Below, one piece after another: positions 5,407 through 31,714 of a stretch of DNA of 64,000 nucleotides. The stretch is from Nitrospirota bacterium (GTDB lineage Bacteria > Nitrospirota > Thermodesulfovibrionia > UBA6902), in assembly GCA_016208905.1 (NCBI GenBank), contig JACQXG010000052.1, positions 551 through 64,550 of the forward strand, in the 5' to 3' direction. Position 1 is the first letter of the stretch, and the number at the start of each line of letters is the position of its first letter. A program made the position numbers and the translations under genes. The notes beneath the pieces were generated by a model, which saw only the letters and a program-made list of their open reading frames with translations, was not told the DNA's origin and searched no databases.

Positions 5407-5958
5407 ATGAAAAAGAAAGCAACACCATTTTTAGCAGTCATGTTTGTTCTGGCCATGATTTTTACTCAGGGGTGTGCCACCAAGATGAGCAAGCCATCCA
5501 GTGCACCTCAGCCTGCAAAGGTCAAGTTTTCCGAGTTCAATGCAGTGGAAATGAAACACATTGAAATTAGCCCGGAATATGCATCATCAGATGCTAATCA
5601 AAAAGCTGCCAAGAAAATAAATGAACATCTCGACAACAAAATGCGTATGGTTTTTTCCGGGTTAAATAATGGCAAGGAACAGTCAGCAGGACGTACATTA
5701 TTGATAGAGCCATACATTAAAGAAATAAAGTTCATAAGCGGTGGAGCAAGATTTTGGGTAGGTGCCATGGCAGGAAGCTCCGCAGTGTTAATGAAAGTTA
5801 CATTCACGGACAAGGCGACTGGAGAGGTTATTGCCGAACCGGAATTTTACAGGGATGCCAATGCAATGGGGGGGGCCTACAGCATGGGCTCAACTGATAA
5901 TCTAATGCTTGAACTTGTCGCACAGGATGTCGCTAATTACAGTATTTCAAATCGTTAA
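5407..5958 (+). CDS. lipoprotein (DUF4410-like)
   Basis: 183 aa. Strong RBS AAAGGAGGAG. Signal peptide with the lipobox-like sequence IFTQGC. Confidence 0.6.
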   Translation: MKKKATPFLAVMFVLAMIFTQGCATKMSKPSSAPQPAKVKFSEFNAVEMKHIEISPEYASSDANQKAAKKINEHLDNKMRMVFSGLNNGKEQSAGRTLLIEPYIKEIKFISGGARFWVGAMAGSSAVLMKVTFTDKATGEVIAEPEFYRDANAMGGAYSMGSTDNLMLELVAQDVANYSISNR

Positions 5959-6103
5959 TAAAGTTTGGCAGTAATCTTTATACGCCGAGCTCTCATTTTT
6001 ATCTGAGAGTCTGATAAATATGCAGTATACATGCGATTAATAAAATGAGGGCTTGGTTTTTCTTTCTCTTATCAAATTGTGAATTTTTAAATTTTCACTA
6101 CTT

Positions 6104-6709
6104 ATGAGAAATAAAACAGGGCGTAGAATTTTTACAGCTTTAATGTTGTTGAGTTTATCTTATGTCCCACTATCATCCGCCCGGGAGCAAAAAGCAGTAA
6201 ATTTCAGCAATGCAAAAAATCACTGGACTTTTTGGGGAGGCTATGGAGTCACTCATCCGGGTTTCGGCGATACTGAAACACGCATTGAAGACGTTGACTT
6301 AATATTGCAATACGGTCATTTTCTGACTGAGGAAAAGGGCAAATCCTGGTACAAAGGACGTCATGAATTACTAATTGAAATACCGCTGTATATTGTTTAT
6401 CATCCGGAAAGAGCTATCATGACCGGGATTAATTTTCTCGCCTGCTGGAATTTTACTGCATCAGAAGAAATAGTCCCTTATATTTTTGCAGGCGGCGGGC
6501 CGTTATATACAAATCTCAATATTCCCGGGCTTGGCAAAGAATTAAATGGGAATTATCAATCGGGGATAGGAGTCCATTATTTTATTGAGAAAGACTTTAG
6601 TATTGACTTTAATTATCGCCTGCATCATATTTCGAATGCCAACACCGCCGATCCAAATGAACCGCTGAACTCGAGCAAGTTTCTTGTCGGGATGACTTTT
6701 CTTATGTGA
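6104..6709 (+). CDS. acyloxyacyl hydrolase / PagL-like lipid A deacylase (outer-membrane beta-barrel)
   Basis: 201 aa with a signal peptide. The C-terminal HHISNA motif resembles the His-x-Ser catalytic pair of the PagL family. The C-terminal strand is aromatic-rich. Confidence 0.55.
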   Translation: MRNKTGRRIFTALMLLSLSYVPLSSAREQKAVNFSNAKNHWTFWGGYGVTHPGFGDTETRIEDVDLILQYGHFLTEEKGKSWYKGRHELLIEIPLYIVYHPERAIMTGINFLACWNFTASEEIVPYIFAGGGPLYTNLNIPGLGKELNGNYQSGIGVHYFIEKDFSIDFNYRLHHISNANTADPNEPLNSSKFLVGMTFLM

Positions 6710-6893
6710 GTTCATTCCGACCATTTCTTAAGAATAATGCCGGTGCCGGGCAATAATTTGTTTTTCGATACCTTAAACGCAATACAAATCAAGGTTATGA
6801 TGTAATTATTTATTTAAAGCTACTTGCATAATATGATAATATTTTCATCGAGTTAAACAAGTTATTTCCCGGCACCTGCATTAATTATATTGA

Positions 6894-8327
6894 TTAAGTC
6901 TTGCCCGCCGGCCTGAAATCATTTTTGATCTTCAGGAATGAAGGCAGGTTTTTTATCATTCTGAATGTACTGTCGGGGGATTTAAACATCAGGGGGCCAA
7001 ACTTCCTGACCCAGTTCGTGCTCGTGTAGAACCCCTTTACAAATTGCTTATAAAGTTCTTCCAGTCTTTCCTTTGATTCAATTCCTTTTGGGACAAAGAC
7101 AAAGTTCATACAATTCATTAATTCCCAGTCTTCATTAAAAACACCTTCTTCATGAATGGTCTTGTACACAGGCGCTCCGGGGAAAGGGGTAAATTTTGTC
7201 ATATTCAGGTCATCAAGTTCCAATTCTGTTATAAATTTAGTGGTCCGTTTAATGGTTTCCTCTGTCTCGCCGGGAAGCCCCATCATAAAGAGCCCCTTGG
7301 CCCTGATACCGTTTTTTTGAATGAGCTTCACGGTTTTTTTCATCTCTTCCAGGTCCACGTTTGATTTGTGCCTGCTGAGCATTTCAGGATCTCCTGACTC
7401 TATGCCGAGGCTGACCATCCAGGCGCCGGCCGTTTTCAGCATCTGTAGCAGGTCATTATCAGCGTGGCCCACCCGCACCGCGCAGTTAAAGGTCATGCCG
7501 AGCGGTTTCTTCTGCAGCATGCCGCAAAGCTCCTCGATACGTTTCCGGTTGAAGGTAAACAGGTCATCATAAAAGAATATATGCCGCACCCTGAATTCCT
7601 TTTTCAGATATGCCATGTGTTCATAGAGATACCCTGCAGAGTTATAACGGAAACTCCTTCGGTATACCGAGCGGTCGCAATATGAACACTGGTAGGGACA
7701 GCCCCGGCTGGATATGATCGTTGAACAGGGGGCCTTCGGGTAGTTAAAAAGCGGGGGATGATACGCTTCCGGAAAGCCGTCCAGTTTATGATAGGCCGGA
7801 AACGGGATGTCATCAAGCTCACACAAGTCTGTCCGGAAACCGGTCGATTGTATCCCGGAGCCGTTGCGATAAAGCAATCCCTGTATTTTATCGGGGGCTA
7901 CTCCAGCGGCAAGCTCTGACATGGCCTTTTCCCCCTCGCCCGTTATCAGATAATCTATGGCCGGAAAGGATTCAAGGATGCCCTCTCTAAGCGCTGAGAC
8001 GTGGACGCCGCCAAAGACAATCCTGATATCAGGAAAAAGCCTCTTGATCTCCTCTGCCTGCCTGTACGCATCGGGAAAACTTGAGGTAGTTGTGGTAAAC
8101 CCGATCATCTCAGGACTGAAAGCCCTCACGCGGCTTATGGTCTCTTCCATTCCGGTCAGCTTGACCGGTCCGGTACAATTGAGGACCTCCACTTCAACCC
8201 CCTTCTTTATCAGAAAAGCCGCGATAGAAAGGATACCTATAGGAGCGCTGCGGTTGGACAGGAGGATCATGTCCTTTCTTCCCTCAAGCCAGTTTGAACC
8301 AAATGGATGGATAAATAATACTCTCAT
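6894..8327 (-). CDS. cobalamin(B12)-binding radical SAM enzyme (class B rSAM), copy 2 of the operon
   Basis: 477 aa. The N-terminal Rossmann-like B12-binding region begins MRVLFIHP..., and the CxxxCxxC motif reads CPYQCSYC. Its start overlaps the upstream ligase stop by 4 nt (ATGA). Confidence 0.8.
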   Translation of the reverse strand: MRVLFIHPFGSNWLEGRKDMILLSNRSAPIGILSIAAFLIKKGVEVEVLNCTGPVKLTGMEETISRVRAFSPEMIGFTTTTSSFPDAYRQAEEIKRLFPDIRIVFGGVHVSALREGILESFPAIDYLITGEGEKAMSELAAGVAPDKIQGLLYRNGSGIQSTGFRTDLCELDDIPFPAYHKLDGFPEAYHPPLFNYPKAPCSTIISSRGCPYQCSYCDRSVYRRSFRYNSAGYLYEHMAYLKKEFRVRHIFFYDDLFTFNRKRIEELCGMLQKKPLGMTFNCAVRVGHADNDLLQMLKTAGAWMVSLGIESGDPEMLSRHKSNVDLEEMKKTVKLIQKNGIRAKGLFMMGLPGETEETIKRTTKFITELELDDLNMTKFTPFPGAPVYKTIHEEGVFNEDWELMNCMNFVFVPKGIESKERLEELYKQFVKGFYTSTNWVRKFGPLMFKSPDSTFRMIKNLPSFLKIKNDFRPAGKT

Positions 8328-9754
8328 CGTTTGATCTTTCCGCTTGCTGTTTTGGGAATGGAACCGACTGTCTCAAAACCCTTGGGGACTTTATACTGGG
8401 CCAGCTTCCGGTAACAGAACTTCTTTAATTCATCCATTGATACGCCGGCCCCATCCTGCAGGACGATCTTTGCCATGGGCAACTGGCCGTATATCGCGTG
8501 GTCCTCACCATACACATATGATTCCCTGACACCTGGGAAATGATTGATAACAGCCTCCACTTCCTGCGCGAATATCTTCATCCCCGCAAAATTTATAACG
8601 TCCTTGTCCCGCCCGACAATGGTCAGGAACCCGTCAGGGTCAAGCCTGCCCAGGTCCCCGGTGTCAAACCAGCTGTTTTTGAGGACACACTCCCTGTTTT
8701 GCCAGGGGGAATAGTAAGCGTCCAGCATGCCTTCCCCTTTAATATATATCGGACCCACCCCTTCTCTGTCCCTGTTGACGATCTCCACTTCAAAGTCCGG
8801 CAGGGGCTTTCCAACAGAACTCCTTTTGCTTTCATCAGAGGAAAGGTTGATAAACGGGAGCCCGACTTCAATTATGCCGTAGGCCTCGCTTAATTCAAAG
8901 CCGAATTTTTCACGAAATCCCTGAGCTATGATTTCAGGGAGCTTCATCGCGGTTGAAACAGCCAGCCGGATATTCTGCAATGCTTCCGCTGACAGCGTTT
9001 CCATGTGGGCCAGCACATTATAATGAAACGGCGACGCATATATAAAAGTGCCCTTGTGTCTTGAGATCCCGTCAATCAATGATTCAGGAAAGAGATTACT
9101 GCAGAGCACAATTGTGGCGGCCCGCCGGAGGAAAAGCATGATGGTCACCACAAAATGAAAACTCATGGAAAGAATCCACAGTACAGTGTCGTCCTGAGTT
9201 ATGCGGAGCCCTTTGTCAGCCGCGGAGGTCCTTTCAAGAATGGCCTCATGTGATAAAACGACTCCCTTGCTGGCCCCGGTGGTGCCGGAGCTGAACCTGA
9301 TAAAGGCGGGATTGATCTTGTAATATGCCCTGTCGGGTTCCTTCTGCTCTCCCCTGTTTAATAAGCGGAATTCCTTTTGGAAAAAGTTTATCAGCCCAAG
9401 TTTGTCTGCTCCGGCGTCATCATAAGAGCCTTCTTCAAAGACAAGATAATTTACTGCGATACGTTCAAGTATTCCGTTTATTTCCTCCTCTGTGTGCTCT
9501 ATGGCAACCGGAACCATGACTGCAGACAGAGACAAAACAGCCAGACTGGCTGCTATGTATTCAATGCTGTCTTTGCAGAGAAGCGCCACCCGGTCATATG
9601 GTCCGACCCCGGCCTTCTTTAACGAACCAGCAAGCAATTCCGCAGATGAAATCAATTGAGAATAAGAAATGCTGCGCTCACCGTCAATCACCGCAGTTTT
9701 ATTTTCAAAATCTTCTGTTTCCTGTTTAATGGTCTGATAAATGTTCATGCTCAT
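8324..9754 (-). CDS. acyl-AMP/CoA ligase (AMP-dependent synthetase family)
   Basis: 476 aa. Contains SSGTTGASKGVVLSH (AMP-binding core), GDLGRLDPDGFLTIVGRDKD, and a C-terminal KTASGKIKR. Confidence 0.85.
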   Translation of the reverse strand: MSMNIYQTIKQETEDFENKTAVIDGERSISYSQLISSAELLAGSLKKAGVGPYDRVALLCKDSIEYIAASLAVLSLSAVMVPVAIEHTEEEINGILERIAVNYLVFEEGSYDDAGADKLGLINFFQKEFRLLNRGEQKEPDRAYYKINPAFIRFSSGTTGASKGVVLSHEAILERTSAADKGLRITQDDTVLWILSMSFHFVVTIMLFLRRAATIVLCSNLFPESLIDGISRHKGTFIYASPFHYNVLAHMETLSAEALQNIRLAVSTAMKLPEIIAQGFREKFGFELSEAYGIIEVGLPFINLSSDESKRSSVGKPLPDFEVEIVNRDREGVGPIYIKGEGMLDAYYSPWQNRECVLKNSWFDTGDLGRLDPDGFLTIVGRDKDVINFAGMKIFAQEVEAVINHFPGVRESYVYGEDHAIYGQLPMAKIVLQDGAGVSMDELKKFCYRKLAQYKVPKGFETVGSIPKTASGKIKR

Positions 9755-9845
9755 ATCATTACATTCCCGTTTTTTGCAAACTGTCTGAAATCCCCTTACT
9801 TCGGTGGAATAGGTCCCGGCATGTCAGGAATATCTGAATGCCGCT

Positions 9846-11261
9846 TTAATAATCCCGGTAGATATTCTTTAAACCTGAAGTATACCTGATGCTCCTGTAA
9901 ATCACCCTCATAATGTCCCTGAAGGGAATACGAACTTTATGGACTCTTGCCGGATTCCCTTTCAGTGCCACACTTGTAAGCCGGGCAAAATGACTGTAAA
10001 ACTTCTTCATCTTTAGCTTCGTAGGTAATATCGTATGCATACAGTCATAGTGCAAATACGGGTCACAAATATAGTCGTCTTTATATTTTTCCCAAATTTT
10101 TGTGCCGGGCGGAGGAGAAAATACGGTGAAAGAGACTTCTGCAGGACAGACCTTTTTGACTTCCTCTTCAAGAAGGCTGAAATCCTCTACTGAAAAATCC
10201 GGGTCAACTATGAAACTGGCATGGAGAACAATGCCGAGGTCGCGAAGAATCGATACAGCTGTCCGGTTTGTCTCTTCACTCGTTCCTTTATTATATCTGT
10301 CCAGCCTTTCCCCTTTCATGGCCTCCAGCCCTACATAGACTGTGCTTAATCCGGCCTCTTTCCAGAGCTGGAAGAGTTCAGGATTTCTGACAATCGTGTC
10401 ACTCCTTGCCCAGCTGATATACTGTTTTTTAATCCCCCTGTCGATAAGGAGTTTTGCAATTTCAGTCATCCGGCCTTTATTCAAAAAAGTCTCGTCGTCC
10501 ACAAAATAAATGAATTCTTCTTTTAAACTTTCAATTTCGTCGGCAACATCCGCGGGCCTGCGCTGCAAATATTGGCCGCGCATAACGTGATGCACTACGC
10601 AGAAAGAACATTTGAACGCGCATCCTATGGAAGTCCTGACACTGGCAGTCTGCGGGAATATCGTTTTCAGTTGATTCTCAGGTGTAGAGGTCCAGATGCA
10701 AAAATATCTGGAGCGCCGGACAAGGTCCCTGCGGGGACGCGGGATATCGTGGACGCTCGGAAATTCCGGCGGCGGCAGCTCTGTCTTTGCCTTAAAATCA
10801 GGATCACGGGGCGAAAGCGATACGCCTCCAAAATGAAGAGGCATTCCCTTTTTGAAGCGGCTGATTATCTCAGCAAAGGCTGTTCCCCCTTCACCGCGCA
10901 CAATGATATCGATACATTCCACTTCATAGTCTGCAGGAATAATAGTAGCGTGAATGCCGCCTACAACATTCACGGCAGAAGGGTTATGTTCCTTCACGAT
11001 TCGGGCCAGCTTTTTGACCATGGCAGACTGTGAACTGTACCCGGTAAACCCGACAATATCAGGACGAAATCCATGAAGCTGACTATGAAACGCCTTCATA
11101 GGCTTTTTCTCAATGCCAAGATCACAGATTACAACCTCATCTTCCGGCGGCACTCCGCCTGCAACTATTTCAAGTTCCAATGGTTCCAGATGCAGAAATC
11201 CCTCCTGCAGTCGTTTTGCTATAAGAAGCTGTGGATGGGGTTTGACAAGCAGTATGCGCAT
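9846..11261 (-). CDS. cobalamin(B12)-binding radical SAM enzyme, copy 1 of the operon
   Basis: I moved the start to ATG 11261 (MRILLVKPH...), which is preceded by AAGGAGG. The longer track ORF (to 11459) would overlap the upstream gene. The CxxxCxxC motif reads CAFKCSFC. Confidence 0.8.
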   Translation of the reverse strand: MRILLVKPHPQLLIAKRLQEGFLHLEPLELEIVAGGVPPEDEVVICDLGIEKKPMKAFHSQLHGFRPDIVGFTGYSSQSAMVKKLARIVKEHNPSAVNVVGGIHATIIPADYEVECIDIIVRGEGGTAFAEIISRFKKGMPLHFGGVSLSPRDPDFKAKTELPPPEFPSVHDIPRPRRDLVRRSRYFCIWTSTPENQLKTIFPQTASVRTSIGCAFKCSFCVVHHVMRGQYLQRRPADVADEIESLKEEFIYFVDDETFLNKGRMTEIAKLLIDRGIKKQYISWARSDTIVRNPELFQLWKEAGLSTVYVGLEAMKGERLDRYNKGTSEETNRTAVSILRDLGIVLHASFIVDPDFSVEDFSLLEEEVKKVCPAEVSFTVFSPPPGTKIWEKYKDDYICDPYLHYDCMHTILPTKLKMKKFYSHFARLTSVALKGNPARVHKVRIPFRDIMRVIYRSIRYTSGLKNIYRDY

Positions 11262-11314
11262 TTGTGTCCCTCCTTTTGCTTCCCTCCTGGTATAGCGGAA
11301 CACAGAGGGGGAAA

Positions 11315-12559
11315 CTAAGTGTATGAATATGGATATCTCCCGTTTTTCACATAATATGCCGCCGCGAGGCCTGCCTGCTCTCCCAATGACATGCATGTAC
11401 CCATGACACGGGTAGAACCAAGCGCCTCGCGGGTCACGGAAATGCAGCGTCCGGCGCAAAGGAGATTCGACAACCCTTTAACTTTCAGGCACCGGAACGG
11501 GATCTCATAATATTCTCCGTCGCGAAGATATTTATAGACTGTACCTTTATTTCTGTCCCACAATTCAATGGGCCAGGAATTTTTTACTACGCCATCGTCA
11601 AATTTCCCGGCATTTAGTATATCATCTTCCGTAAGAGTATATTCACCGCAGATCCTTCTTCCTTCCCTGTCCATTACCTTAAGAGAAGTGCCGGCTATAT
11701 GCGCGTGTCTGAATGAAGGCAGTTTTTCTGCTAGATATCCGAGTATCTTTGCTGCCCTGTTTAATACTACCGGGCCCCGTCTGCTGTATTCATGTCCGGG
11801 ATTAATTTTAAGGTAACCCTCATCCGGGACATCTCCGTAACTGAAGGTAGTATATCTTGCATATGAAGGGAACCGCTTCACTTCCGCCGCCTCTGATAAA
11901 TAATAAGGCACCTTGACCGGCAGGGTCTCATCGCCGGTGTTTAATCCTTTCAAATGAATTATAAATCCGGCAAGCTGTCTCTTCGATAAAGGTGATAACT
12001 TATAATCAGCGCCTGCCATGACAGCAGCCGCACCGTCTCCGCTGCAATCGATCAATACCTTGGGAGTGATGTTAAATGTAGTCCCTCGTATCCCCCCTTT
12101 AGTAAAGTGGGGTCGGGGGGATTTGGCATTCATGTCACTCAATGCAACCTCAACAACCTTCCCCTTTTTCTTCTTCACCGAAACCAAGGATGTATTTAGC
12201 ATAACGGAAAGTCTGTTTTCAGCTCGACACATGGAATTAAATACAGAGGAAAGGTCCTCGCGTAAATATGGAAGAACGTAAACCTGTCCGATCTTTTTTA
12301 CTTTATTGCGTGGAGATAACCTATGAAGCCCGCTTACTACTTCCCGGACAATCCCGTCATTTAAAGTCTCTTCCGGAACAGCCCTTCCGTTCAGATATAA
12401 ACCGCATATCTGCTGAAGAAGTCCTGAATATCCTGCCCCCCCGATGAACCCCTCTTTTTCCACTACAACAGTCCGGATACCGCTCCGGGCGGACGCCAGT
12501 GCTGCAGATATGCCTGAAACGCCGGCGCCTATTACAAGAATATCACAGGCAATGTTCAT
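11315..12559 (-). CDS. FAD-dependent oxidoreductase
   Basis: 414 aa. N-terminal dinucleotide fold DILVIGAGVSGISAALASARSGIRTVVVEKEGFIGG. Confidence 0.75.
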   Translation of the reverse strand: MNIACDILVIGAGVSGISAALASARSGIRTVVVEKEGFIGGAGYSGLLQQICGLYLNGRAVPEETLNDGIVREVVSGLHRLSPRNKVKKIGQVYVLPYLREDLSSVFNSMCRAENRLSVMLNTSLVSVKKKKGKVVEVALSDMNAKSPRPHFTKGGIRGTTFNITPKVLIDCSGDGAAAVMAGADYKLSPLSKRQLAGFIIHLKGLNTGDETLPVKVPYYLSEAAEVKRFPSYARYTTFSYGDVPDEGYLKINPGHEYSRRGPVVLNRAAKILGYLAEKLPSFRHAHIAGTSLKVMDREGRRICGEYTLTEDDILNAGKFDDGVVKNSWPIELWDRNKGTVYKYLRDGEYYEIPFRCLKVKGLSNLLCAGRCISVTREALGSTRVMGTCMSLGEQAGLAAAYYVKNGRYPYSYT

Positions 12560-13883
12560 TAACTGCGGGACATCCCAGCCTTTGCTTAATGCCTGATTCT
12601 ATCATTGCAATCTCCTCGTCCTGAAGCAGTCCGTCGAGATATGAAATTACGAGATTAAGCCGGCTGTTAAAATGGTTAAAGAAAAAACCTATTCCAGGCG
12701 GTGTCGGAACACGCGGCATATGGAAGAGATTATTGATTTCCGCCCCCATAATATCGGCATACTTATAAGAACATTTTCCCATATAAGAGAAGCAGAAAGA
12801 AGCCAGTTTTTCCTTACATGCCAGGCGGAACAATTTCCCCAACGCGGGCAGAGGCGCAACGCGGGTCAATAAACTTACCCTTCGTATGTCCTCAGGAAAA
12901 CCTGATTGCACCTGCTCATACATCTGCTGTTTAATCGATTTTAAGAGTCCCTCCTGATTATCAACATCATCGAAATGCACCTGAAAAAAAAGAAATGACA
13001 AATGATTAAATAATATGTTCTGTTTAATATCTTCACCGTTTCTCATATCAATTGACACGGGAATTAAATATGTATCTTTTGTCATTCCCCTTATTTTAAA
13101 GAGAGCATGAACCGTCTGTATGACTACGGACAATAAATAAGGCATTTCCATAAAATATCCCGCTTCGTCATGGGACCTGTTATAGATTTGGTCAGTCTCC
13201 GCCTGATCAAACGGGATGATTCTGAAACTGAATCCCCGTTTTGCTTTGGAATTCGGCAACGGCAATGCCGCCATTATTGACGGTTTGACCATTCTGCTCT
13301 TCACATTCTTCATGGCACGAATATTTTTAAACCATTGAAATGTGACTTCCGTCGGCGGACAACTGAAACGTTTTATGATTTCATCTTTATTATTTTCAGT
13401 CAGATATTGCTGGAATAAATCAAGAAAGGTCTCAGCTCCCCGGGCGTCAAACAAACAGTGATCAAAAGTCATGGCTAAATAACATCGCCGGGAATCTTCA
13501 TATATAAGATGAAATGCCAGATGCTCACCGCTGCTGTTAAATGGTTTATTTATAGTACTTTTAAGCAGCGATAAAACGCCCTCATTATTAACATGGTACA
13601 CATTGAAATTCAGGTCGTTTTCCAGTCCTTCCGGAATTCTCCAGTAAGGGACACACGTGATGTTCCGGCTTATCTTTCCATATAAGGCGGGGATTTCTTT
13701 TGTAAAACGTCTTAAGTGGCCCCGAAGCGACACTTCATCTACCACAGTATCCAACATAATAACGATCTGCGACATGTTCCCGGCATTTGTAGTCGCTTTC
13801 ATTGCATAATCCAGCGCGCTTATCAACCAGTCAACACCTGACAGATACGGTTTGTTTCTTATTGATGGAATTACAGTTTCCAC
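12543..13883 (-). CDS. HxxxD-motif acyltransferase (condensation / WS-DGAT / PapA5-like fold)
   Basis: 446 aa with a GTG start. The motif FDHCLFDARG (HxxxD) lies at roughly one third of the protein. The stop overlaps the flavoenzyme start by 17 nt. Confidence 0.55.
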   Translation of the reverse strand: METVIPSIRNKPYLSGVDWLISALDYAMKATTNAGNMSQIVIMLDTVVDEVSLRGHLRRFTKEIPALYGKISRNITCVPYWRIPEGLENDLNFNVYHVNNEGVLSLLKSTINKPFNSSGEHLAFHLIYEDSRRCYLAMTFDHCLFDARGAETFLDLFQQYLTENNKDEIIKRFSCPPTEVTFQWFKNIRAMKNVKSRMVKPSIMAALPLPNSKAKRGFSFRIIPFDQAETDQIYNRSHDEAGYFMEMPYLLSVVIQTVHALFKIRGMTKDTYLIPVSIDMRNGEDIKQNILFNHLSFLFFQVHFDDVDNQEGLLKSIKQQMYEQVQSGFPEDIRRVSLLTRVAPLPALGKLFRLACKEKLASFCFSYMGKCSYKYADIMGAEINNLFHMPRVPTPPGIGFFFNHFNSRLNLVISYLDGLLQDEEIAMIESGIKQRLGCPAVNEHCL

Positions 13884-13885
13884 AA

Positions 13886-14128
13886 CTAAATTTTCTTGTG
13901 AATAAAGGATGCTATGGAATGAATTGTCTCAAAATCTTTTCTGGCCATATTTGACTCTATTAACCTGAGGTTAAAGGTCTTTTCTATAAACACAAGGATC
14001 TCCACAAAACCCAGGGAATCAATGCCCAATTGATTAAAAAGCATGTCCGGTGTTATAGAGGATTCATCCTTAGAAATGATAACTGCAATCCCTGCAATTA
14101 ATTTTTCTTCAATAGTCTGTAATGACAA
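13886..14128 (-). CDS. acyl carrier protein
   Basis: 80 aa. LGIDSLGFVEIL contains the phosphopantetheine Ser (DSL) motif. The TTG start directly abuts the upstream stop. Confidence 0.8.
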   Translation of the reverse strand: MSLQTIEEKLIAGIAVIISKDESSITPDMLFNQLGIDSLGFVEILVFIEKTFNLRLIESNMARKDFETIHSIASFIHKKI

Positions 14129-15214
14129 TTATGGATCAACTTCCTTATATTTTCTGAGATAAATAAATGCATTTTCGCCATTACAATTATATCTAGTGCA
14201 CTGAATAAATTCAATATTGTAATATTTGGCGTCATCAAGGAGATTAATCCCCCTGGGATTATCTTTCACAGGGTTTGCGTAACACGTCTGGTTCTTTAAC
14301 ATTAATACGCCCGCCGCGCAGTTAAAGGCACTGCCGGTCATCATGCTTCCGAAAATGGGAGAATACGCTGCCACCGGGACATCAGATGTAATGTCTTTCA
14401 TATATACTGACTCATCAGACAGCATGCCATCGGTGTCAATGATGTTCAGGTCCACAGGGACCGTGTAATTTTTATGACCGCCAAACGCAATATCATGAAA
14501 CGTACCGTAAATATTACCTGTGTCTTTCCTGCTTACCAGAAAAAAAGCCGCGCCCTCTCCCGGCACCTGATAAGCCGGGTGAAAATTGAAAGGTCTTATT
14601 TTACCGTCAGCAGCTGTTTTCAGTTTGGTATCACAAATATACCCGAAGACATTGCCGTATTGTTCAACTGCTCCGACAAGGACATGATCACAGCGCTCCT
14701 CATCAAGCCATGACCGGGCAAGCTGCAGGGCATAATGAAAAGAGAAATAAAACTGGGTCACTGTCAACGTCTGGCCCTGAATGCCTAATACAGAAGATAT
14801 ATATGAAGCAGCGGCATTATGGACCGAATTGGAAAAGACGGTCGGCGAAACCCCGGCCTCTCCGTAGTCAAGGATGCCGTCAAGAAAATTAAAAGTAGTA
14901 TCATGCGTGCCAAGACCGGTAGCTACTATAACACCTATATTGTTTTTATTGATTCCTTCAAGTCCGCCGGTAACAAGGGCCTCAGAAGCGGCCAGCGCAG
15001 CCATTTTACTGAACTTGTCTGCGCGGCGCATCTTCTTGAATAAATGCCTCTCACTGACTTCATTTAAATTAACAAGATATGCAGGTGTCTTTATGTTTTT
15101 TAGATGAGGGACCTGTATTTCTTCCGGTTTCTGCCATCCCTGCTTCAATGCCTTCTCAAAACTGTCAACTCCTGTTCCGCATGCGCAGACAATACCCATT
15201 CCATGAATATTCAT
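14129..15214 (-). CDS. ketosynthase-like partner lacking the Cys-His-His triad (chain-length-factor-like)
   Basis: 361 aa with a KS-like N-terminus (GMGIVCACGTG, RRADKFSKMA). Where a KS has ACSSG, HGT and GHTLG, it has TVTQFYFSFHY, DTDGM and GSMMTGS. Comparison was by eye. Confidence 0.6.
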   Translation of the reverse strand: MNIHGMGIVCACGTGVDSFEKALKQGWQKPEEIQVPHLKNIKTPAYLVNLNEVSERHLFKKMRRADKFSKMAALAASEALVTGGLEGINKNNIGVIVATGLGTHDTTFNFLDGILDYGEAGVSPTVFSNSVHNAAASYISSVLGIQGQTLTVTQFYFSFHYALQLARSWLDEERCDHVLVGAVEQYGNVFGYICDTKLKTAADGKIRPFNFHPAYQVPGEGAAFFLVSRKDTGNIYGTFHDIAFGGHKNYTVPVDLNIIDTDGMLSDESVYMKDITSDVPVAAYSPIFGSMMTGSAFNCAAGVLMLKNQTCYANPVKDNPRGINLLDDAKYYNIEFIQCTRYNCNGENAFIYLRKYKEVDP

Positions 15215-16395
15215 GATATCAGCCTCCGCCCCAAAACAAGGGCCGCATTATTGCCTCCAAACGCCAGTGACGTGGAAAGAGCGAAACGGCCATTGATGTT
15301 CGTTCTTTCCCTGACAGGCGCTATCGGAATGTTATTGTCCCTTTGAGTGAATCCGATACTTGCCGGTATCCAGCCTTCCCGCAGGGCGGCCGCAGTGAAT
15401 ACGGCCTCAATTCCACCCGCAGCGCCTAACGTGTGGCCTGTATATCCTTTTGTAGACAGCATTTTTAATCCGGCTCCGAAAACCCGCGCCAACACCCTGC
15501 CTTCAACAGCATCATTGTCCGGAGTGGCCGTGCCATGAGCATTAACAAATGCAATTTCCTGAGGCCCGATTCCTGAATAAGCAAGGGCTTTATTAATTGA
15601 TGCCTCCAATCCCCTGCCCTCGGGATGAGGCGCAGTAAGATGGTATGAATCACTGGCTGACCCATACCCTGCAAGATGAAGATCGGAAGTAATACCTCTT
15701 TTTGCAGCAGACTGCTCTGTCTCGACAACCAGGACGCCTGCCCCTTCGCCCAGGTTAAGTCCCTTGCGGTCCCTGTCAAAGGGAGCGCATAAGTCCCGGC
15801 TCATTATGCCTAACGAGCCGAAACCACAAAGAGGAACGCGGTTCAATTCATCCGCTCCGCCTGCAATAGCTATATCACACAACCCGTTGTTCAACCAGGA
15901 CAACGCTATGCCGACTGCGTCGGTTCCGGAAGAACACGCATTTACAACGGTCAGTGACGGACCTCCGGCTTTGAGTTTGCGCGATATAAATCCGGCAAGA
16001 TTGCCTTTTAAATATCTTTCAACGGGTTTCATGGGCGCCGTCCCCCGGTCACGATAGGACCTGTAAAATTCCAGATCATTGAGCTGGCTCGCTACCGTTG
16101 TCCCCAAACAAACGCCTATGCGGCGCGCTGACAGATCACCCTGCAGCTGCGCGTCTCTGAGCGCTTCATCGACTGCGACCAGGGCCAGACTCAACGTCCT
16201 CTGTCCCTCTAAATAATATTTATCAGGTAATGCGCTTACCTCAAAGACAGGATATTGAAGTTGGGTTTCAAACAGCCTGACAGGTCCGGCAGTCCTTTTC
16301 CCCTGGCGTAATGAAACAAGTGTTTCGGAAAGATTATTCCCGGCCGCGGAGATGACCCCGAGCCCTGTTATTAAAATCTTATTATCGGTTATCAA
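15211..16395 (-). CDS. beta-ketoacyl-ACP synthase (FabF/KS-alpha type)
   Basis: 394 aa. Shows the active-site sequence VVNACSSGTDAVG plus AHGTATPDND and GHTLGAAG. It has a TTG start. The stop overlaps the next start by 4 nt (ATGA). Confidence 0.85.
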   Translation of the reverse strand: MITDNKILITGLGVISAAGNNLSETLVSLRQGKRTAGPVRLFETQLQYPVFEVSALPDKYYLEGQRTLSLALVAVDEALRDAQLQGDLSARRIGVCLGTTVASQLNDLEFYRSYRDRGTAPMKPVERYLKGNLAGFISRKLKAGGPSLTVVNACSSGTDAVGIALSWLNNGLCDIAIAGGADELNRVPLCGFGSLGIMSRDLCAPFDRDRKGLNLGEGAGVLVVETEQSAAKRGITSDLHLAGYGSASDSYHLTAPHPEGRGLEASINKALAYSGIGPQEIAFVNAHGTATPDNDAVEGRVLARVFGAGLKMLSTKGYTGHTLGAAGGIEAVFTAAALREGWIPASIGFTQRDNNIPIAPVRERTNINGRFALSTSLAFGGNNAALVLGRRLIS

Positions 16396-16514
16396 ACAAA
16401 CTACCAGGCCCTTTCAGCATCTGACAATACAGTTTTCAGGATTTGAAACAGATAGATTTTAACAAATGCAACTGCAATAGTCTAACGACTAATATCTACG
16501 TTTGTTTTCCACCT

Positions 16515-18353
16515 TTACTGTGCCTTTTTATATCCCATACCGGCGGCTGTTTTGAAGTCACCTGCGGCCCGCTCATGTTCTCCCATCATATCGTATACGA
16601 GCCCCCTGTTGTAGTAGACGGCAGCTAAAGGAGTTATGGAAATTACCTTGTTAAAGTCTTCCAGCGCCTTGTCTGTTTCGCCGGTCTTGACATAAGAGAC
16701 TCCGCGGTTTATGTAAGAATCAACAGACCCGGGATTTTTCTCAATGGCTTCACTATAAAATTTAATTGCCAGTTTATAAGCAAGGACCATGTTGCGGCGG
16801 GCCTCTGCGTTTTCAGAATTCAGATCTATTGTGCTGTTAAAATCAGAGAGGGCCTGATTGAAATCTCCTTTTAGCAACGAAATTAATCCGCGATGATAAA
16901 AGGCGTTTTCAATTTTTTTATCAGTTTCTATGGACGCATTAAAATATTCCAGCGCCTTATCAAAATCTCCGAGGCTGTAATAAGCCATTCCCATTGACGC
17001 CAGCGTATGCGGGTCGTCGGGGTATACCTCCAATTCTGCTTTCCATAACGACAGAGTGTTTTTCCATATTCCTGTCTGTCTTATCGTAAGGACAGATGAA
17101 AGAGCAAATACAATTATGCAAAATCCTGCGATTGCGACTCTTCCGAAGATTAAATTATCGCGGCTGTCTTTTGTTTTTTCCCATAACCATGATGTGCCCA
17201 ATCCCGTAAGGAACAGAGGCCCTATACATGGAAGATAGGTATAGCGGTCGGCCCCTGCCTGATTTCCGGCCTGGACAAGTCCCAATACGGGCAATAAGGT
17301 CACGACATAATATGTCCATGCTGCGGAGAAGACTTTTTGTTTTTTCCGGGACAGAACACAAATGACTGATATAAATACCGTAAATATGACAGCGCCCATA
17401 TATGGTAATGACAGTATTGATATTTTTGACGGGTACGGATAGAAAGGCACAAGGTTTGACGGCCATACCATCTTGTAAAGATAGAACCACAGTGAGTTGA
17501 ATGCCAGTAAAATCCGGTCCCAAACAGGATGCGCCTCTAATGATGATATCGCTCCCCCTCCCTGTTGAGCCATTACGGTCAGCGCGGTTGAGGCAAGGCT
17601 GAATCCAAAAAAGGGAAGCTTCTCAGCCAATACTTTGCGATGTGATTTAGAAGGAGACGTAATGTTAAGCCTTTCAAAAGGATATATATCTAAAATAATT
17701 AATATAACGGGCAGGGTGACAGCCATGGGTTTGCTCATCAGCGCCATGATGAAAGATAAAAGACTCCAGCTGTAATATAAATATTTTTTCTCATTCAAAT
17801 CATGGCATGCATACTTCAGGTATGAAAGGATGCTGAGAAGATAGAAAAAAGCGCACAGGACGTCTTTCCTCTCCGATATCCAGGCGACAGACTCGACGTG
17901 CAGAGGATGCAGGCCGAACAGAAGCCCTGTTACAACCCCGGCAATAATAGAGGCATCATTGAGATGCGGGCTGTCTTTATCGACTGCCCGCGGTTGTTTT
18001 ATATCTTTAATATAATTAATTAAACCGATAGTCAGTAATACAACGAGAAAGGTATTTAATCCGTGAAGGATTATGCTTGTAAGATGATGTCCCATAGGGT
18101 CCAGCCCCCATATTGCATAATCGAGTGCGTGGGAAATCCATGTCAGCGGGTGCCAGTTTGACGCATGAAATGATGTGAATATCCATTTAAAAAAATCAAT
18201 CCCAATAGACCGGATATTAGGATTGTTATATACGTAATCATGATCATCCCAATTGATAAAATTATTTTGAAGGGCAGGGAGATAGACAAGCATTGTAATG
18301 AGGGCGGCAAAAAGAGCTGAGATTTTTATTTTTGAATTACTGGAATAGAACAT
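16515..18353 (-). CDS. polytopic membrane protein with C-terminal TPR repeats (GT-C/PMT-like glycosyltransferase fold suspected)
   Basis: 612 aa. About 10 hydrophobic helices are followed by 5 or more TPR units (AYYSLGDFDKALEYF, YHRGLISLLKGDFNQAL, and others). Confidence 0.5.
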   Translation of the reverse strand: MFYSSNSKIKISALFAALITMLVYLPALQNNFINWDDHDYVYNNPNIRSIGIDFFKWIFTSFHASNWHPLTWISHALDYAIWGLDPMGHHLTSIILHGLNTFLVVLLTIGLINYIKDIKQPRAVDKDSPHLNDASIIAGVVTGLLFGLHPLHVESVAWISERKDVLCAFFYLLSILSYLKYACHDLNEKKYLYYSWSLLSFIMALMSKPMAVTLPVILIILDIYPFERLNITSPSKSHRKVLAEKLPFFGFSLASTALTVMAQQGGGAISSLEAHPVWDRILLAFNSLWFYLYKMVWPSNLVPFYPYPSKISILSLPYMGAVIFTVFISVICVLSRKKQKVFSAAWTYYVVTLLPVLGLVQAGNQAGADRYTYLPCIGPLFLTGLGTSWLWEKTKDSRDNLIFGRVAIAGFCIIVFALSSVLTIRQTGIWKNTLSLWKAELEVYPDDPHTLASMGMAYYSLGDFDKALEYFNASIETDKKIENAFYHRGLISLLKGDFNQALSDFNSTIDLNSENAEARRNMVLAYKLAIKFYSEAIEKNPGSVDSYINRGVSYVKTGETDKALEDFNKVISITPLAAVYYNRGLVYDMMGEHERAAGDFKTAAGMGYKKAQ

Positions 18354-18422
18354 TCGTTACCGGCTTATTCCTTCATACTCCGGCAGTCTTTACTCTGGCG
18401 CAGCCACTCCAATTTCTTCTCA

Positions 18423-20138
18423 TCAATCCTTATTGGTTTTTTTAATGTCCACAGGTTTTGCCTGAAGGACCAATTCAGCATAATAAGTGCTGTCTTTTTT
18501 TAATATCATCAACTCCTTGTGACAGACATCGCATGATGCGGCATCTCCGGCATTTATCTGGTCACTTAGATTTATATAGGTACTGCAAAACGGGCAGACG
18601 ATACTCTTCCCACTCTGTTTATTGTAATCCTGAAGAATGCTGTCAAGCCTGCCTGCCCTGAAACAGGAGATAATCGCGCGCGCGCATTCAGGGTCAAACT
18701 GCCTGCCGGACTCTTTTTCAATTTCGTTTATCGCAATCTCAGGGTCCAGGCCTTTGCGGTAGGGTCTGTTGCTTGTCATGGCGTCCATTGTGTCTGCTAC
18801 GGAAACAATCCGGCCTTCAATCGGGATATCAGTCCCTTTTAATCCGTAAGGGTACCCTCTGCCGTCATACCGTTCATGATGGTACAGACAGTATGGGACC
18901 AGTGAGGAAAGATGCGGCGAGTCCTGAAGCAGTCTCGCGCCTTTTTCCGGATGGATTTTCATCTGGCCGAATTCTTCATCTGTCAGTTTCCCGGGTTTCT
19001 GAAGAATAGCGTCAGGCACTGCAATCTTACCCACATCATGAAGCACTCCCCCCATCTGGACTTCTTTTATCTTTTCCTCCGGCCAGCCCAATTCCCTTGC
19101 GACAGCAATGGAAAAATTCGTCACACGCCAGGTATGACCCACAGTGTAATGGTCCCGCAGTTCAATGGCATTGGCAAGGGCCTTAAGGGTTTCCTGATAA
19201 CCCTGTTCAACCATATGCAGGTACTGGGCGTTTTTGATTGCAATGGCAGACGGGCCTGCCAGCGCAACAAGCAGCTCCAGATCACTGGCAACAAAGGCAT
19301 TGGTTGTTTTTCGTGTATCTGCATATATTACACCGAGGCATTCTTTCCGATAGGTTAAAGGAACGCACATTACAGATGATATGTTTTGAATAATAATACT
19401 GGCCTTTGTATTAAAACGTGAATCATCCGAAGCATCATAGGTAATAACAGCCTCTCCGTTTTCAAAGGCCCGTTTGACGATTGAAGAGCTGATGGTCACT
19501 TCATTACTCTGTGATCCTGCTTTTATATATTTGGTGACAAGTTCTGATGTTTTTTCGTCCTTGAGAATAATCGCACCGTTATGAGCGGGAATAAGCGCGA
19601 ATATCTGGTCCATAACACGCTCAAAAAGTTTAGCGAGGTCCTGTTCACTCGTGATGATTTCATTGGCAGAATAGACGGCCTGCAGGCGCTGCTGGGTTTT
19701 TCTTAACTGTTCTTCGGTGGCGGATGCCTTTGGCGCCCCGAAAAAAGTATCATAAATATCAGCTGCATTCGTGCCTTCTATATCGGCTTCTGAGTCCGCC
19801 TTAAAACGAATAATACTGCCGGGTTTTATTTTTTCAGCAATTTCAGCTGGTTCAATTTCAAAACGAAACTTCTGTGGTCCTATTTTGATTTCATCACCAT
19901 TGATCAGCCTGTGTTCAGATATTTTTTTATTTCCGATAAATGTGCCGTTAGCGCTGTTTAAATCCCGAAGAATGGTGTATTCCGGTTTTTGCTCAATGAC
20001 GGCGTGTCTTCTTGAAATCTCCGGATCATGAAACTGAAGTGTATTCTCAGGGTCGCGGCCAATGGTTAATATCCCCTGGATGTCTATTGTCATATCTTGC
20101 TTATCACCGGTCAGAATAATAATTCTTTGCTTATTCAT
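18423..20138 (-). CDS. FHA-GAF-HD-GYP phosphodiesterase with a C-terminal zinc ribbon
   Basis: 571 aa. The FHA region reads TIGRDPENTLQF...ISRRHAVI...NGTF. The HD-GYP motifs are HDVGK and HHERYDGRGYP. The C-terminal sequence is CPFC...CDVC. Confidence 0.8.
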   Translation of the reverse strand: MNKQRIIILTGDKQDMTIDIQGILTIGRDPENTLQFHDPEISRRHAVIEQKPEYTILRDLNSANGTFIGNKKISEHRLINGDEIKIGPQKFRFEIEPAEIAEKIKPGSIIRFKADSEADIEGTNAADIYDTFFGAPKASATEEQLRKTQQRLQAVYSANEIITSEQDLAKLFERVMDQIFALIPAHNGAIILKDEKTSELVTKYIKAGSQSNEVTISSSIVKRAFENGEAVITYDASDDSRFNTKASIIIQNISSVMCVPLTYRKECLGVIYADTRKTTNAFVASDLELLVALAGPSAIAIKNAQYLHMVEQGYQETLKALANAIELRDHYTVGHTWRVTNFSIAVARELGWPEEKIKEVQMGGVLHDVGKIAVPDAILQKPGKLTDEEFGQMKIHPEKGARLLQDSPHLSSLVPYCLYHHERYDGRGYPYGLKGTDIPIEGRIVSVADTMDAMTSNRPYRKGLDPEIAINEIEKESGRQFDPECARAIISCFRAGRLDSILQDYNKQSGKSIVCPFCSTYINLSDQINAGDAASCDVCHKELMILKKDSTYYAELVLQAKPVDIKKTNKD

Positions 20139-31054: not shown

Positions 31055-31714
31055 TTAAATAGGAAGCTTTTTATTCAGATATTCCAGATGGGATTTAAGG
31101 AAATTATAATCATCAATATTGTCTACGTCATACCAGAATGGAAGCATTGACAGTTTAACGTCCATTTGCCGGGTTTTATTAAGTATCCCGCTCACATCTT
31201 TACCGGTATCCAGTTTAATGGACCGGGAAATGACATTTATTTTTTCTTTTCTTACTCCAATTAAATATAATCCCTGATCAAAACAGGGTCCGATAACAAA
31301 ATCATTCTTTTTTAAATCGGAAAAAGCCTTCCTGATAAAATTAACCGGCATGGAGGGACTGTCGCTTCCGATTAAAACAATTTCCGAATACCCTTTCCGG
31401 GCGCAGTGTCTAAAGGCATTAAAAATTCGTTCGCCGAGAGTCTTTCCCTGCTGATTGAACATTTTCATGCCGCAACTGTTTGCAATTTTCATGAGGAAAA
31501 TATGATCGTTCGATGGCGCACAGCCCAGGAACCTGTCCACTCCCTTCAAACGGGTGCACCGGGATGTCAGCTCAGTCACAAAAGATTTGTATACTTCAAC
31601 GGTTTTTTCAGCCCCTATGCCTGCCTGAAGCCTTGTTTTTACAGTACCCGGTACAGGGGCTTTTGCAAAAGTAATTAATGCTTTTTTTATGTTGTCTTTT
31701 GGATTATCCTGCAT
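31055..31714 (-). CDS. DUF2064 / TIGR04282-like nucleotidyl- or glycosyl-transferase-fold protein
   Basis: 219 aa. The N-terminal sequence ITFAKAPVPGTVKTRL and GSDSP are typical of that family, as far as I recall. Confidence 0.5.
   Translation of the reverse strand: MQDNPKDNIKKALITFAKAPVPGTVKTRLQAGIGAEKTVEVYKSFVTELTSRCTRLKGVDRFLGCAPSNDHIFLMKIANSCGMKMFNQQGKTLGERIFNAFRHCARKGYSEIVLIGSDSPSMPVNFIRKAFSDLKKNDFVIGPCFDQGLYLIGVRKEKINVISRSIKLDTGKDVSGILNKTRQMDVKLSMLPFWYDVDNIDDYNFLKSHLEYLNKKLPI

Follow-up and report, generated by a model that had tools for sequence, protein, structure and literature searches.

The coupling of fatty-acid-type carrier chemistry to radical S-adenosylmethionine (rSAM) enzymes has been proposed only for the ladderanes and for jawsamycin (2026 review). 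Specifically, anammox Cluster I (KustE3603-3608), proposed to make ladderanes, encodes an acyl carrier protein (amxACP), amxFabZ, amxFabF2, amxFabFmut, a phytoene-dehydrogenase homolog, and a cobalamin rSAM enzyme (bioRxiv 10.64898/2026.05.19.726425). Kuenenia, Desulfotalea, Geobacter, and Pelobacter have in common clusters of similar gene classes, and Desulfotalea makes polyunsaturated hydrocarbons and no ladderanes (Rattray et al. 2009, PMC2649909). antiSMASH issues "ladderane" calls in many non-anammox phyla, where the function of the clusters is unknown (PMC9902471). Here, we describe an eight-gene operon from this neighborhood. It lies at positions 6894-16395, on the minus strand, of a 64,000-nt stretch of a Nitrospirota metagenome-assembled genome (MAG); the whole stretch is called the window. 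Its genes specify, in order, a beta-ketoacyl synthase (KS), a dead KS partner resembling a chain length factor (CLF), an acyl carrier protein (ACP), a protein with an HxxxD motif, a flavoenzyme, a putative cobalamin (B12)-dependent rSAM enzyme (rSAM 1), an adenylating (AMP-forming) ligase, and a second putative B12-dependent rSAM enzyme (rSAM 2).

We tentatively propose that the operon is a self-contained module that would build, tailor, and transfer an acyl chain for an envelope lipid, by a scheme of loading, extension, tailoring, and transfer. Domain content, motifs, and a structure model point this way, and we rate the scheme as plausible, somewhat short of probable. Loci of this general kind are already known as the aryl-polyene-like or "ladderane-type" type II fatty acid synthase (FAS)/polyketide synthase (PKS) lipid clusters of anaerobes. 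What is new is the add-on module, which unites a condensation-fold family that had no annotation with a PF12831 flavoenzyme and two different putative B12-rSAM enzymes. A compact operon that couples KS, CLF, and ACP to two different enzymes of the latter type, with relatives in more than 100 species of anaerobes, would provide a second, simpler entry to the chemistry invoked for ladderanes, and the module may encode an undiscovered envelope lipid. Moreover, many "ladderane" calls in non-anammox MAGs would represent an aryl-polyene-like envelope-lipid supercluster plus a modular add-on, which tempers what can be read from metagenome surveys.

The eight-gene block and its conservation

Each of the eight proteins is identical to its NCBI record (MBI4682724-31) from a Nitrospirota/Nitrospirae MAG of groundwater origin, on a 70-kb contig, and thus the host is not an anammox planctomycete. 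The KS gene (16395-15211), with a TTG start, overlaps the partner gene (15214-14129) by 4 nt (ATGA). The ACP gene (14128-13886), also with a TTG start, follows with 0 nt between, and the gene for the HxxxD protein (13883-12543), with a GTG start, follows after 2 nt. Overlap recurs, over 17 nt, between the HxxxD and flavoenzyme (12559-11315) genes. The rSAM 1 gene (11261-9846) lies 53 nt farther on, counted from the ATG at 11261. That codon, preceded by a AAAGGAGG ribosome-binding site, is the start we prefer to position 11459, where the mechanically called open reading frame (ORF) begins. After another 91 nt comes the ligase gene (9754-8324, 476 amino acids), which overlaps the rSAM 2 gene (8327-6894) by 4 nt (ATGA).

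An earlier note, made by reading the DNA without database searches, had described eight co-directional minus-strand genes with these seven junctions, TTG and GTG starts, and a set of catalytic motifs. All eight genes are present in the ORF list at 6894-16395, the junctions, confirmed in their sequences, are exact to the nucleotide, the unusual starts are those given above, and every quoted motif is found in the translations. The motifs are ACSSG, HGTATP, and GHTLG in the KS, the DSL phosphopantetheine attachment site in the ACP, FDHCLFDARG in the HxxxD protein, the dinucleotide-binding motif GAGVSG in the flavoenzyme, CAFKCSFC in rSAM 1, SSGTTGASKG in the ligase, and CPYQCSYC in rSAM 2. Pfam and NCBIfam scans agree with the domain assignments in the note, with the HxxxD protein alone lacking a family match. 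Specifically, Pfam identifies PF00109 and PF02801 in the KS, the N-terminal domain PF00109 alone in the partner, PF00550 in the ACP, PF12831 in the flavoenzyme, PF02310 and PF04055 in both rSAM enzymes, and PF00501 and PF13193 in the ligase. As the note had held, Pfam finds no ketoreductase (KR), dehydratase (DH), enoylreductase (ER), or thioesterase (TE) domain in any of the eight proteins.

Relatives of the block were collected by scanning one genome per species with the HxxxD alignment. They occur in at least 130 species, so the note's term "orphan," in the sense of rare, does not apply. Gene order was compared by tblastn of the window proteins against the best 80 of the 130 loci, and it is kept almost everywhere. 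Among the 37 loci with both flanks, 34 retain KS-partner-ACP-HxxxD-flavoenzyme-ligase, and 17 retain all eight genes. Co-conservation of the block, on which the note had staked its proposal, is therefore what we find. One gene order shared by dozens of species in several phyla puts the operon far beyond chance. The ACP, HxxxD, and flavoenzyme genes are universal in relatives with adequate flank: the ACP gene stands directly 5' of the HxxxD gene in all 56 loci whose flank is long enough, and the flavoenzyme is found in all 49 relatives with downstream flank. The partner gene always comes after the KS gene, and KS orthologs in full-length related loci are 59-76% identical to the KS in the window. 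The ligase is present in 46 of the 49.

The rSAM genes behave differently from these. Among the same 49 loci with enough downstream sequence, rSAM 1 occurs in 35 and rSAM 2 in 25; 22 loci have both, 13 have rSAM 1 alone, 3 have rSAM 2 alone, and 11 have neither. Because their presence varies, the rSAM genes are optional, accessory tailoring genes and not part of the core.

By record title, 50 of the 80 loci belong to Nitrospirota/Thermodesulfovibrionia and 17 to Desulfobacterota in the wide sense (Geobacterales, Desulfobacterales, and others). Eight are unclassified, and five are single occurrences in Deferribacteres, Omnitrophica, Victivallales, Pseudomonadota, and "Methanosarcinales" bins. 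Nearly all come from MAGs; the locus from Desulfococcaceae bacterium HSG8 carries no MAG label. The "Methanosarcinales" locus (CAZSRD010000011.1) is labeled as an archaeon MAG yet holds a complete bacterial-type cluster with KS, partner, ACPs, HxxxD protein, flavoenzyme, ligase, and a PagL-like gene, and it is probably a mis-binned contig.

The larger cluster in relatives and the described systems

In 42 of 45 relatives, the block comes last in a far longer run of genes on one strand, a cluster that is aryl-polyene-like and includes a member of TIGR04072 (rSAM_ladder_B12). One such locus (L081) lies on a UBA6902 contig. There, the genes upstream of the block KS start with one for a PaaK/F390-type AMP-ligase. 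A radical SAM-SPASM protein carrying a fused ApeP-like domain is second, and LolA-like, 777-amino-acid MMPL-like, and 238-amino-acid proteins come next, in that order. An ApeI-like dehydratase subunit and a 4HBT thioesterase follow, then a second KS, which has a small partner, and after it a B12-rSAM enzyme and the TIGR04072 rSAM enzyme. The series ends with a GT2+DUF2062 glycosyltransferase, an LpxL-type acyltransferase, a second ACP (PRK09184 type), and a polysaccharide deacetylase. The fusion of a radical SAM-SPASM protein to the ApeP-like dehydratase-subunit domain (622-2136 of that contig) is unusual. On UBA6902 contig DKBK01000035, the supercluster numbers about 22 genes. Across the 45 loci with at least 9 kb of upstream sequence, the second ACP is found in 42, the LpxL-type acyltransferase in 39, the GT2 glycosyltransferase in 38, the TIGR04072 rSAM gene in 36, and the polysaccharide deacetylase in 33. 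The gene just 5' of the KS is the polysaccharide deacetylase or the ACP of the larger cluster. No KR was seen within 10 kb in relatives.

The TIGR04072 family, which from its model name we take to correspond to Kuste3342/3343, separates this upstream half from the block. The upstream rSAM enzyme of relatives scores 616 bits against a cutoff of 360, while rSAM 1 and rSAM 2 of the window fail it with 55 and 109 bits. The earlier note had pointed to a resemblance to enzyme classes proposed for ladderane biosynthesis and to related orphan clusters in deltaproteobacteria. The neighborhood it pointed to is real, as a TIGR04072 gene lies just upstream in 36 of the 45 relatives within an aryl-polyene-like cluster. 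The eight genes themselves do not correspond to the ladderane-type core, given the rSAM scores, the PF12831 flavoenzyme, and the absence of FabZ. Judged by their sequences, they are best viewed as an add-on to a ladderane-type cluster.

The upstream half is absent from the 64-kb window. When eight upstream proteins of a relative (L023) were compared with the window by tblastn, only cross-matches of about 22-35% identity to the block KS, ACP, and rSAM genes and to a third rSAM gene were recovered; a true TIGR04072 member reaches about 22% identity at best. Likewise, KR (ApeQ), DH (ApeI/ApeP), thioesterase, LolA-like, and MMPL genes are found neither in the operon nor among the window ORFs scanned, whereas relatives have ApeI-like, ApeP-like, thioesterase, LolA, and MMPL-like genes upstream. 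Synteny with relatives stops exactly at the KS start. The remaining cluster may lie elsewhere, on another contig of the fragmented MAG. Such a solo state is rare: three of the 45 loci (L027, L036, and L065) have none of the five upstream genes counted above.

Among described systems, the aryl polyene (APE) cluster, for which we used ApeA-ApeS of E. coli CFT073 (NC_004431 1143727-1158748), is a close likeness. Both have a type II KS with a dead CLF partner, dedicated ACPs, and an adenylating starter ligase. The adjoining upstream half in relatives, moreover, has homologs of ApeM (MMPL), ApeK (thioesterase), ApeJ (GT2/acyltransferase), ApeI, ApeP, and ApeE. Differences are equally evident. The operon in the window has no KR, DH, or methyltransferase, its partner has no blastp match to ApeC, its ACP matches ApeE weakly, and its ligase has no blastp similarity to ApeH at E<=1e-3. 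Conversely, the condensation-fold enzyme, the PF12831 flavoenzyme, and the B12-rSAM enzymes are absent from the E. coli cluster.

With ladderane-type clusters, the system has in common dead-site FabF paralogs, B12/radical SAM proteins, flavoenzymes, an acyl ligase, a polysaccharide deacetylase, and a membrane transporter; the window differs in having neither the TIGR04072 member nor the upstream genes. With anammox Cluster I, the likeness lies in the enzyme classes and in the logic of a KS/dead-KS heterodimer. In contrast to Cluster I, the window operon has no FabZ/FabA domain, its flavoenzyme belongs to PF12831 and not to the amine-oxidase/phytoene-desaturase type, and a ligase and a condensation-like enzyme are additional. 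Gene order differs as well: amxFabFmut lies just upstream of amxFabF2, whereas the dead partner here comes after the KS. We take PDB entry 9s5h, a heterodimeric pair of FabF homologs, to be the anammox amxFabF2/amxFabFmut pair. At 193 bits against 9s5h_B, the KS does no better than with ordinary FabF (208 bits), and it reaches 189 bits against the ishigamide enzyme Iga11, so that it is about equidistant from all three; the partner, at 22.7 bits against 9s5h_C, likewise does no better than with ordinary FabF.

Lipo-initiation modules, such as the fab genes of the calcium-dependent antibiotic (CDA) and DptE/DptF of daptomycin, combine a fatty acyl-AMP ligase, an ACP, a flavin acyl-ACP oxidoreductase, and a starter condensation domain. 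By analogy, the ACP-HxxxD-flavoenzyme core plus the ligase could act in the same way, activating an acid, loading it onto the ACP, redox-tailoring it on the carrier, and transferring it with a condensation-fold enzyme. The differences are that the ligase is short compared with fatty acyl-AMP ligases and that no nonribosomal peptide synthetase (NRPS), peptidyl carrier protein (PCP), or peptide genes are present here. The acceptor must therefore differ from that of lipopeptide systems.

Two other comparisons were rejected. An aromatic type II (minimal) PKS does not fit, as the CLF glutamine is not present (Tyr, Phe, or Gly occupies the site), the His-His region is deleted, and there are no cyclase/aromatase domains. 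A hopanoid role for the rSAM enzymes, as HpnR and HpnJ, does not fit either, as both score under the equivalog cutoffs (650 and 577 bits), and no squalene-hopene cyclase or hpn gene is among the window ORFs scanned. Finally, no characterized biosynthetic gene cluster syntenic with the block was found in the literature. Literature on TIGR04072, on B12-binding proteins of lipid biosynthesis, and on aryl polyenes with radical SAM enzymes yielded no paper describing the module. No description of the HxxxD/PF12831/ligase add-on was found in PMC2649909 or PMC9902471.

The enzymes, a proposed route, and its competitors

The HxxxD protein matches neither Pfam nor NCBIfam. Its homologs numbered 461 in a first search and 887 clusters at 50% identity in a profile search, and they define an unannotated family of free-standing enzymes, predicted to have the condensation fold, for which neither database has a model. 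Family sequences match the 2-oxoacid_dh, WS_DGAT_C, BAHD Transferase, and Condensation models weakly, none at the cutoff, and PF00668 matches 2 of 24 members (best E 0.006). Because the sequence profile gave only chance-level matches to PDB sequences, to E2 acyltransferase catalytic domains, a fold search was needed. An AlphaFold (AF2) model from 24 sequences (predicted local distance difference test [pLDDT] 72.6; predicted template modeling score [pTM] 0.78) returned 299 PDB matches at E<=1e-3 with Foldseek. The 50 best matches listed are almost all condensation (C), epimerization (E), or cyclization (Cy) domains of NRPSs, with E ~1e-17 and template modeling (TM) scores of 0.5-0.65. True C and E domains head the E-value ranking, and the top TM score among the matches listed, 0.65, belongs to the dehydratase AzeD (8s6l), which has the condensation fold. 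H142, D146, and the Ala-Arg-Gly that follows are invariant in the 24-sequence alignment. The modeled fold thus supports the acyltransferase-superfamily assignment in the earlier note and places the protein, as a predicted member, in the NRPS condensation-domain (chloramphenicol acetyltransferase [CAT]-like HxxxD acyltransferase) superfamily. We presume that it acts as an acyl-ACP:acceptor transferase. Named distant relatives come from a soil metagenome, Kiritimatiellia, and other metagenomes or MAGs, with no cultured host or anammox member among them.

The KS has an intact Cys-His-His triad. Its top NCBIfam model is the aryl-polyene-type PRK09185, at 307 bits under a cutoff of 407, followed by FabF at 277.5 bits, and it is 36% identical to ApeO of E. 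coli CFT073 (blastp). The partner, named "beta-ketoacyl synthase chain length factor" by NCBI, is truncated to 361 amino acids and lacks the whole His-His region. At the position of the active-site Cys, the alignment shows Tyr in the window and Phe or Gly in relatives. Its sequence marks it as a catalytically dead, truncated KS and, having neither the active-site Gln nor the Cys, it would be unable to prime a chain by decarboxylation.

The flavoenzyme matches PF12831 at 243.6 bits. Six cysteines, C52, C111, C172, C357, C372, and C389, are invariant in the family alignment and might serve as ligands of an Fe-S cluster or make up a redox disulfide. The structure model is poor (pLDDT 64) and supports a generic two-dinucleotide-binding flavoprotein fold, no more. 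Its best fold match is the geranylgeranyl-reductase-like 3oz2 (TM 0.41); class A monooxygenases and fumarate reductases rank next, and PDB sequence matches cover the N-terminal Rossmann motif only. As the hosts are anaerobes, judging from the taxonomy in the record titles, a reductase or dehydrogenase role is likelier than that of a monooxygenase. A phytoene-desaturase/amine-oxidase type was considered and ruled out: the family is PF12831, and crtI_fam scores 20.9 bits, confined to the N-terminal Rossmann motif.

The ligase is a short ANL enzyme. Among solved structures, it lies closest to the synthetases of oxalyl-CoA and malonyl-CoA, MenE, benzoate-CoA ligase, and FadD13, whose substrates are oxalate, malonate, o-succinylbenzoate, benzoate, and fatty acids. 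We presume from its sequence that it acts as a starter-acid:ACP ligase.

Both rSAM proteins have the class B layout, with an N-terminal B12-binding domain and a CxxxCxxC radical SAM core, and on this basis they are putative cobalamin-dependent (class B) radical SAM enzymes. They are just 21% identical to each other. For rSAM 1, the HpnR C-3 methylase leads the NCBIfam models, with a full-length match of 224.7 bits. The second enzyme is HpnJ/BchE/AprD4-like, with 196.9 bits against HpnJ, and its best solved relative is AprD4 (95 bits), which is reported to function without cobalamin. A third B12-binding radical SAM gene lies far from the operon, at 60557-61957 (minus strand). Its product is 31% identical to rSAM 2 and is HpnJ-like (195 bits, cutoff 577), with 119 bits against TIGR04072 (cutoff 360). 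A phosphoglucosamine/phosphomannomutase-type gene flanks it on one side, among other housekeeping genes.

Taken together, these proteins suggest the following route. The ligase would adenylate a carboxylic-acid starter and place it on the ACP, and the KS/partner heterodimer would lengthen the starter with malonyl units. Housekeeping FAS II enzymes could be borrowed, FabD for malonyl transfer and FabG/FabZ/FabI if the chain is reduced. On the ACP-bound chain, the flavoenzyme would then reduce or introduce a C=C bond. Where present, the optional HpnR-like and HpnJ/AprD4-like rSAM enzymes could alter unactivated carbons by methylation or another radical rearrangement. Finally, the condensation-fold enzyme would take the completed chain off the ACP and attach it to an acceptor through a hydroxyl or amino group. 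This route is the simplest reading because the partner cannot prime, the ligase is the sole adenylating enzyme and near-universal, and the ACP gene directly precedes the condensation-fold gene. The destination is likely an outer-membrane glycolipid, since the neighbors in relatives include GT2 (polyprenyl-phosphate sugar transferase-like), deacetylase, LpxL, LolA/MMPL, and PagL genes. By analogy with LpxC and LpxD in lipid A synthesis, the last step is possibly the N-acylation of a deacetylated amino sugar. The earlier note had put forward much the same sequence of loading, extension, tailoring, and off-loading. Its proposal is a reasonable one from domain content and motifs, with the change that the rSAM enzymes move from the core to the accessory genes.

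Several observations weigh against this route. With no KR, DH, or ER in the operon, its gene content does not show how far the chain would be reduced. The ligase resembles CoA ligases for small diacids and aryl acids and could yield a CoA thioester and not an acyl-ACP. The condensation fold also houses epimerases and dehydratases, with the dehydratase AzeD having the top TM score among the matches listed. The flavoenzyme model is poor, and the acceptor is deduced solely from neighbors that are absent in the window. The rarity of the solo state suggests that the module might need genes elsewhere or be inactive here.

A broader proposal, which we regard as unlikely but worth stating, is that, in Nitrospirota and Desulfobacterota that are strict anaerobes, the module and its parent supercluster make outer-membrane lipids of a class not yet described. 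In such a lipid, a polyketide-like chain, methyl-branched or otherwise rearranged by the B12-rSAM enzymes at unactivated carbons while ACP-bound, would be attached to a glycolipid anchor by the new condensation-fold family. If so, the lipid could be a source of orphan branched or cyclic sedimentary biomarkers, and these bacteria would offer a tractable non-anammox model of the radical SAM chemistry invoked for ladderanes.

The strongest competitor to the load-extend-tailor-transfer scheme is the formation of a two-part conjugate, as in flexirubin, in which the condensation-fold enzyme would join a chain made by the upstream half to the moiety made by the module, through an ester or an amide. 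Condensation domains normally couple two carrier-bound substrates. In keeping with this, two ACP genes lie close together just 5' of the HxxxD gene in 42 of 45 relatives, and some loci (L049 and L067) have ACP-ACP-HxxxD-flavoenzyme-ligase without the second KS/CLF pair. What makes a conjugate rather unlikely in our view is that the window and the three solo relatives carry the module without the upstream half, with ORFs and motifs intact.

A ring-forming pathway like that of cispentacin or coronafacic acid would have the ligase load a small keto-diacid, followed by a single extension and cyclization to a small carbocyclic acid. The cispentacin system (ACP AmcB, KS pair AmcF/AmcG, and adenylating enzyme AmcH) resembles the operon in that its KS has a non-catalytic partner, that a ligase and an ACP accompany the pair, and that KR and ER are lacking. 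All three of its models appear among the NCBIfam matches, AmcB being the top match of the ACP, and the operon's lack of KR, DH, and ER and the ligase's kinship with enzymes for oxalate, malonate, and o-succinylbenzoate would suit such a product. All three scores nevertheless fall under their cutoffs (AmcF 234.7 bits for 325, AmcG 29.6 for 80, and AmcB 51 for 80), and the KS scores higher on PRK09185 (307) and FabF (277). With 361 residues, the partner is over twice as long as the AmcG model (157 positions), and the context is envelope-lipid-like. To our knowledge, the cispentacin pathway has no rSAM, flavoenzyme, or condensation-like genes and no envelope context. We therefore regard a ring former as improbable.

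The HxxxD protein might instead be the missing dehydratase, or another modifier of the ACP-bound substrate, with release carried out by a different enzyme, for example of LpxL type. The AzeD match and the lack of a DH in the operon favor this role, as do the LpxL-type acyltransferases in 39 of 45 relatives. It has little chance in our estimation, given the invariant His, Asp, and Ala-Arg-Gly, the true C and E domains at the head of the E-value ranking, and the absence of any other off-loading enzyme near the block in the window.

Still more doubtful is a block left stranded by rearrangement of a larger cluster and making no product in this genome. The missing upstream half, the synteny break at the KS start, the two-lineage composition considered below, and the solo state of only 3 of 45 relatives are what such a remnant would leave. 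Its eight full-length ORFs, intact motifs, and tight overlapping junctions are not, and the rest of the cluster may sit on another contig of the fragmented MAG.

Finally, production of ladderane (cyclobutane) lipids, as proposed for Cluster I, is extremely improbable: the enzyme classes match KustE3603-3608 (ACP, KS plus dead KS, flavoenzyme, cobalamin rSAM; bioRxiv 10.64898/2026.05.19.726425) and a TIGR04072 gene adjoins the block in relatives, but the host is a Nitrospirota bacterium while ladderanes are reported solely from anammox bacteria (PMC9902471; bioRxiv 10.64898/2026.05.19.726425), Desulfotalea with a related cluster makes none (PMC2649909), FabZ is absent, the flavoenzyme is of another family, both rSAM enzymes fall under the TIGR04072 cutoff, and the KS is no nearer to 9s5h_B than to ordinary FabF.

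Origin and surroundings of the operon

The genes of the operon do not all have the same closest history. Identities were compared gene by gene between the window and its closest relatives, L019, L023, and L033. For three genes, the window is as close to the relatives as these are to one another: the flavoenzyme (76-79% against 77-80% among the relatives themselves), the ligase (78-88% against 75-83%), and rSAM 2 (89-91% against 87-89%). The other five are lower, namely the KS (73-75% against 83-89%), the partner (56-59% against 82-84%), the ACP (64-65% against 89-90%), the HxxxD protein (46-49% against 75-81%), and rSAM 1 (74-75% against 92% between L023 and L033). This division argues that the operon is a recombinant, and we interpret it as a mosaic of two lineages that would have arisen by recombination or by module exchange inside the cluster. 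The exchange of lineage coincides with the loss of the upstream half; the ORFs and motifs are all intact nonetheless.

The 119-nt intergenic region 5' of the KS (16396-16514, minus strand) is the likely promoter region of the operon and the synteny breakpoint relative to the relatives. It contains a weak sigma-70-like match at 16484-16456 (TAGACT-17-TAAAAT with TG, 9 of 12 positions). Promoter-like matches in this region are not clearly above chance (29 versus 21.6 +/- 4.8 expected), and a terminator scan likewise gave no more than shuffled sequence would. Neither a riboswitch nor another RNA element turned up when 5500-19000 was scanned with Rfam at E<=1.

Upstream of this region, the window holds genes for a tetratricopeptide repeat (TPR) membrane protein, an FHA-GAF-HD regulator, a glyoxalase-family protein, and a threonine-synthase-like pyridoxal phosphate (PLP) enzyme, none of which accompanies the block in relatives. 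The earlier note had suggested that the first of these (16515-18353, 612 amino acids), described there as TPR/GT-C-like, might belong to the same unit. No homolog stands beside the block in the 80 loci, and the suggestion is rejected. Its TPR repeats are real, and the 430-residue N-terminal membrane part matches no Pfam family, GT-C included.

Downstream synteny is kept, with a convergent PagL-like gene and a Mur-ligase-family gene recurring in relatives. The PagL-like gene (6104-6709, plus strand) encodes an outer-membrane beta-barrel protein of the lipid A 3-O-deacylase family (PF09411, 63 bits; PF13505). In 12 of 49 loci, a homolog follows the block at a distance of no more than 2.5 kb; both orientations occur, and distant lineages, where identity is 31-44%, are among these loci. 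The gene is outside the operon, and from this recurrence a functional link is possible.

Genes for putative signaling proteins also occur around the operon. An FHA-GAF-HD (HD_5) protein is encoded at 18423-20138 (minus strand), directly upstream of the TPR gene, a 731-amino-acid PilZ-domain protein at 341-2536 (minus strand), and, farther off, a GGDEF-PilZ protein at 48285-49748 (minus strand). We found no evidence in the window tying these proteins to the operon. The rest of the window is housekeeping in character, including genes for ClpB, DnaJ, a UvrA-like ATPase, RpoD, and RecQ, among others. In this stretch, with DnaJ and ClpB nearby, lies a gene for a DUF2064 protein (31055-31714, minus strand) that passes the TIGR04282 "arsenosugar biosynthesis glycosyltransferase" model at 145 bits against a cutoff of 134.

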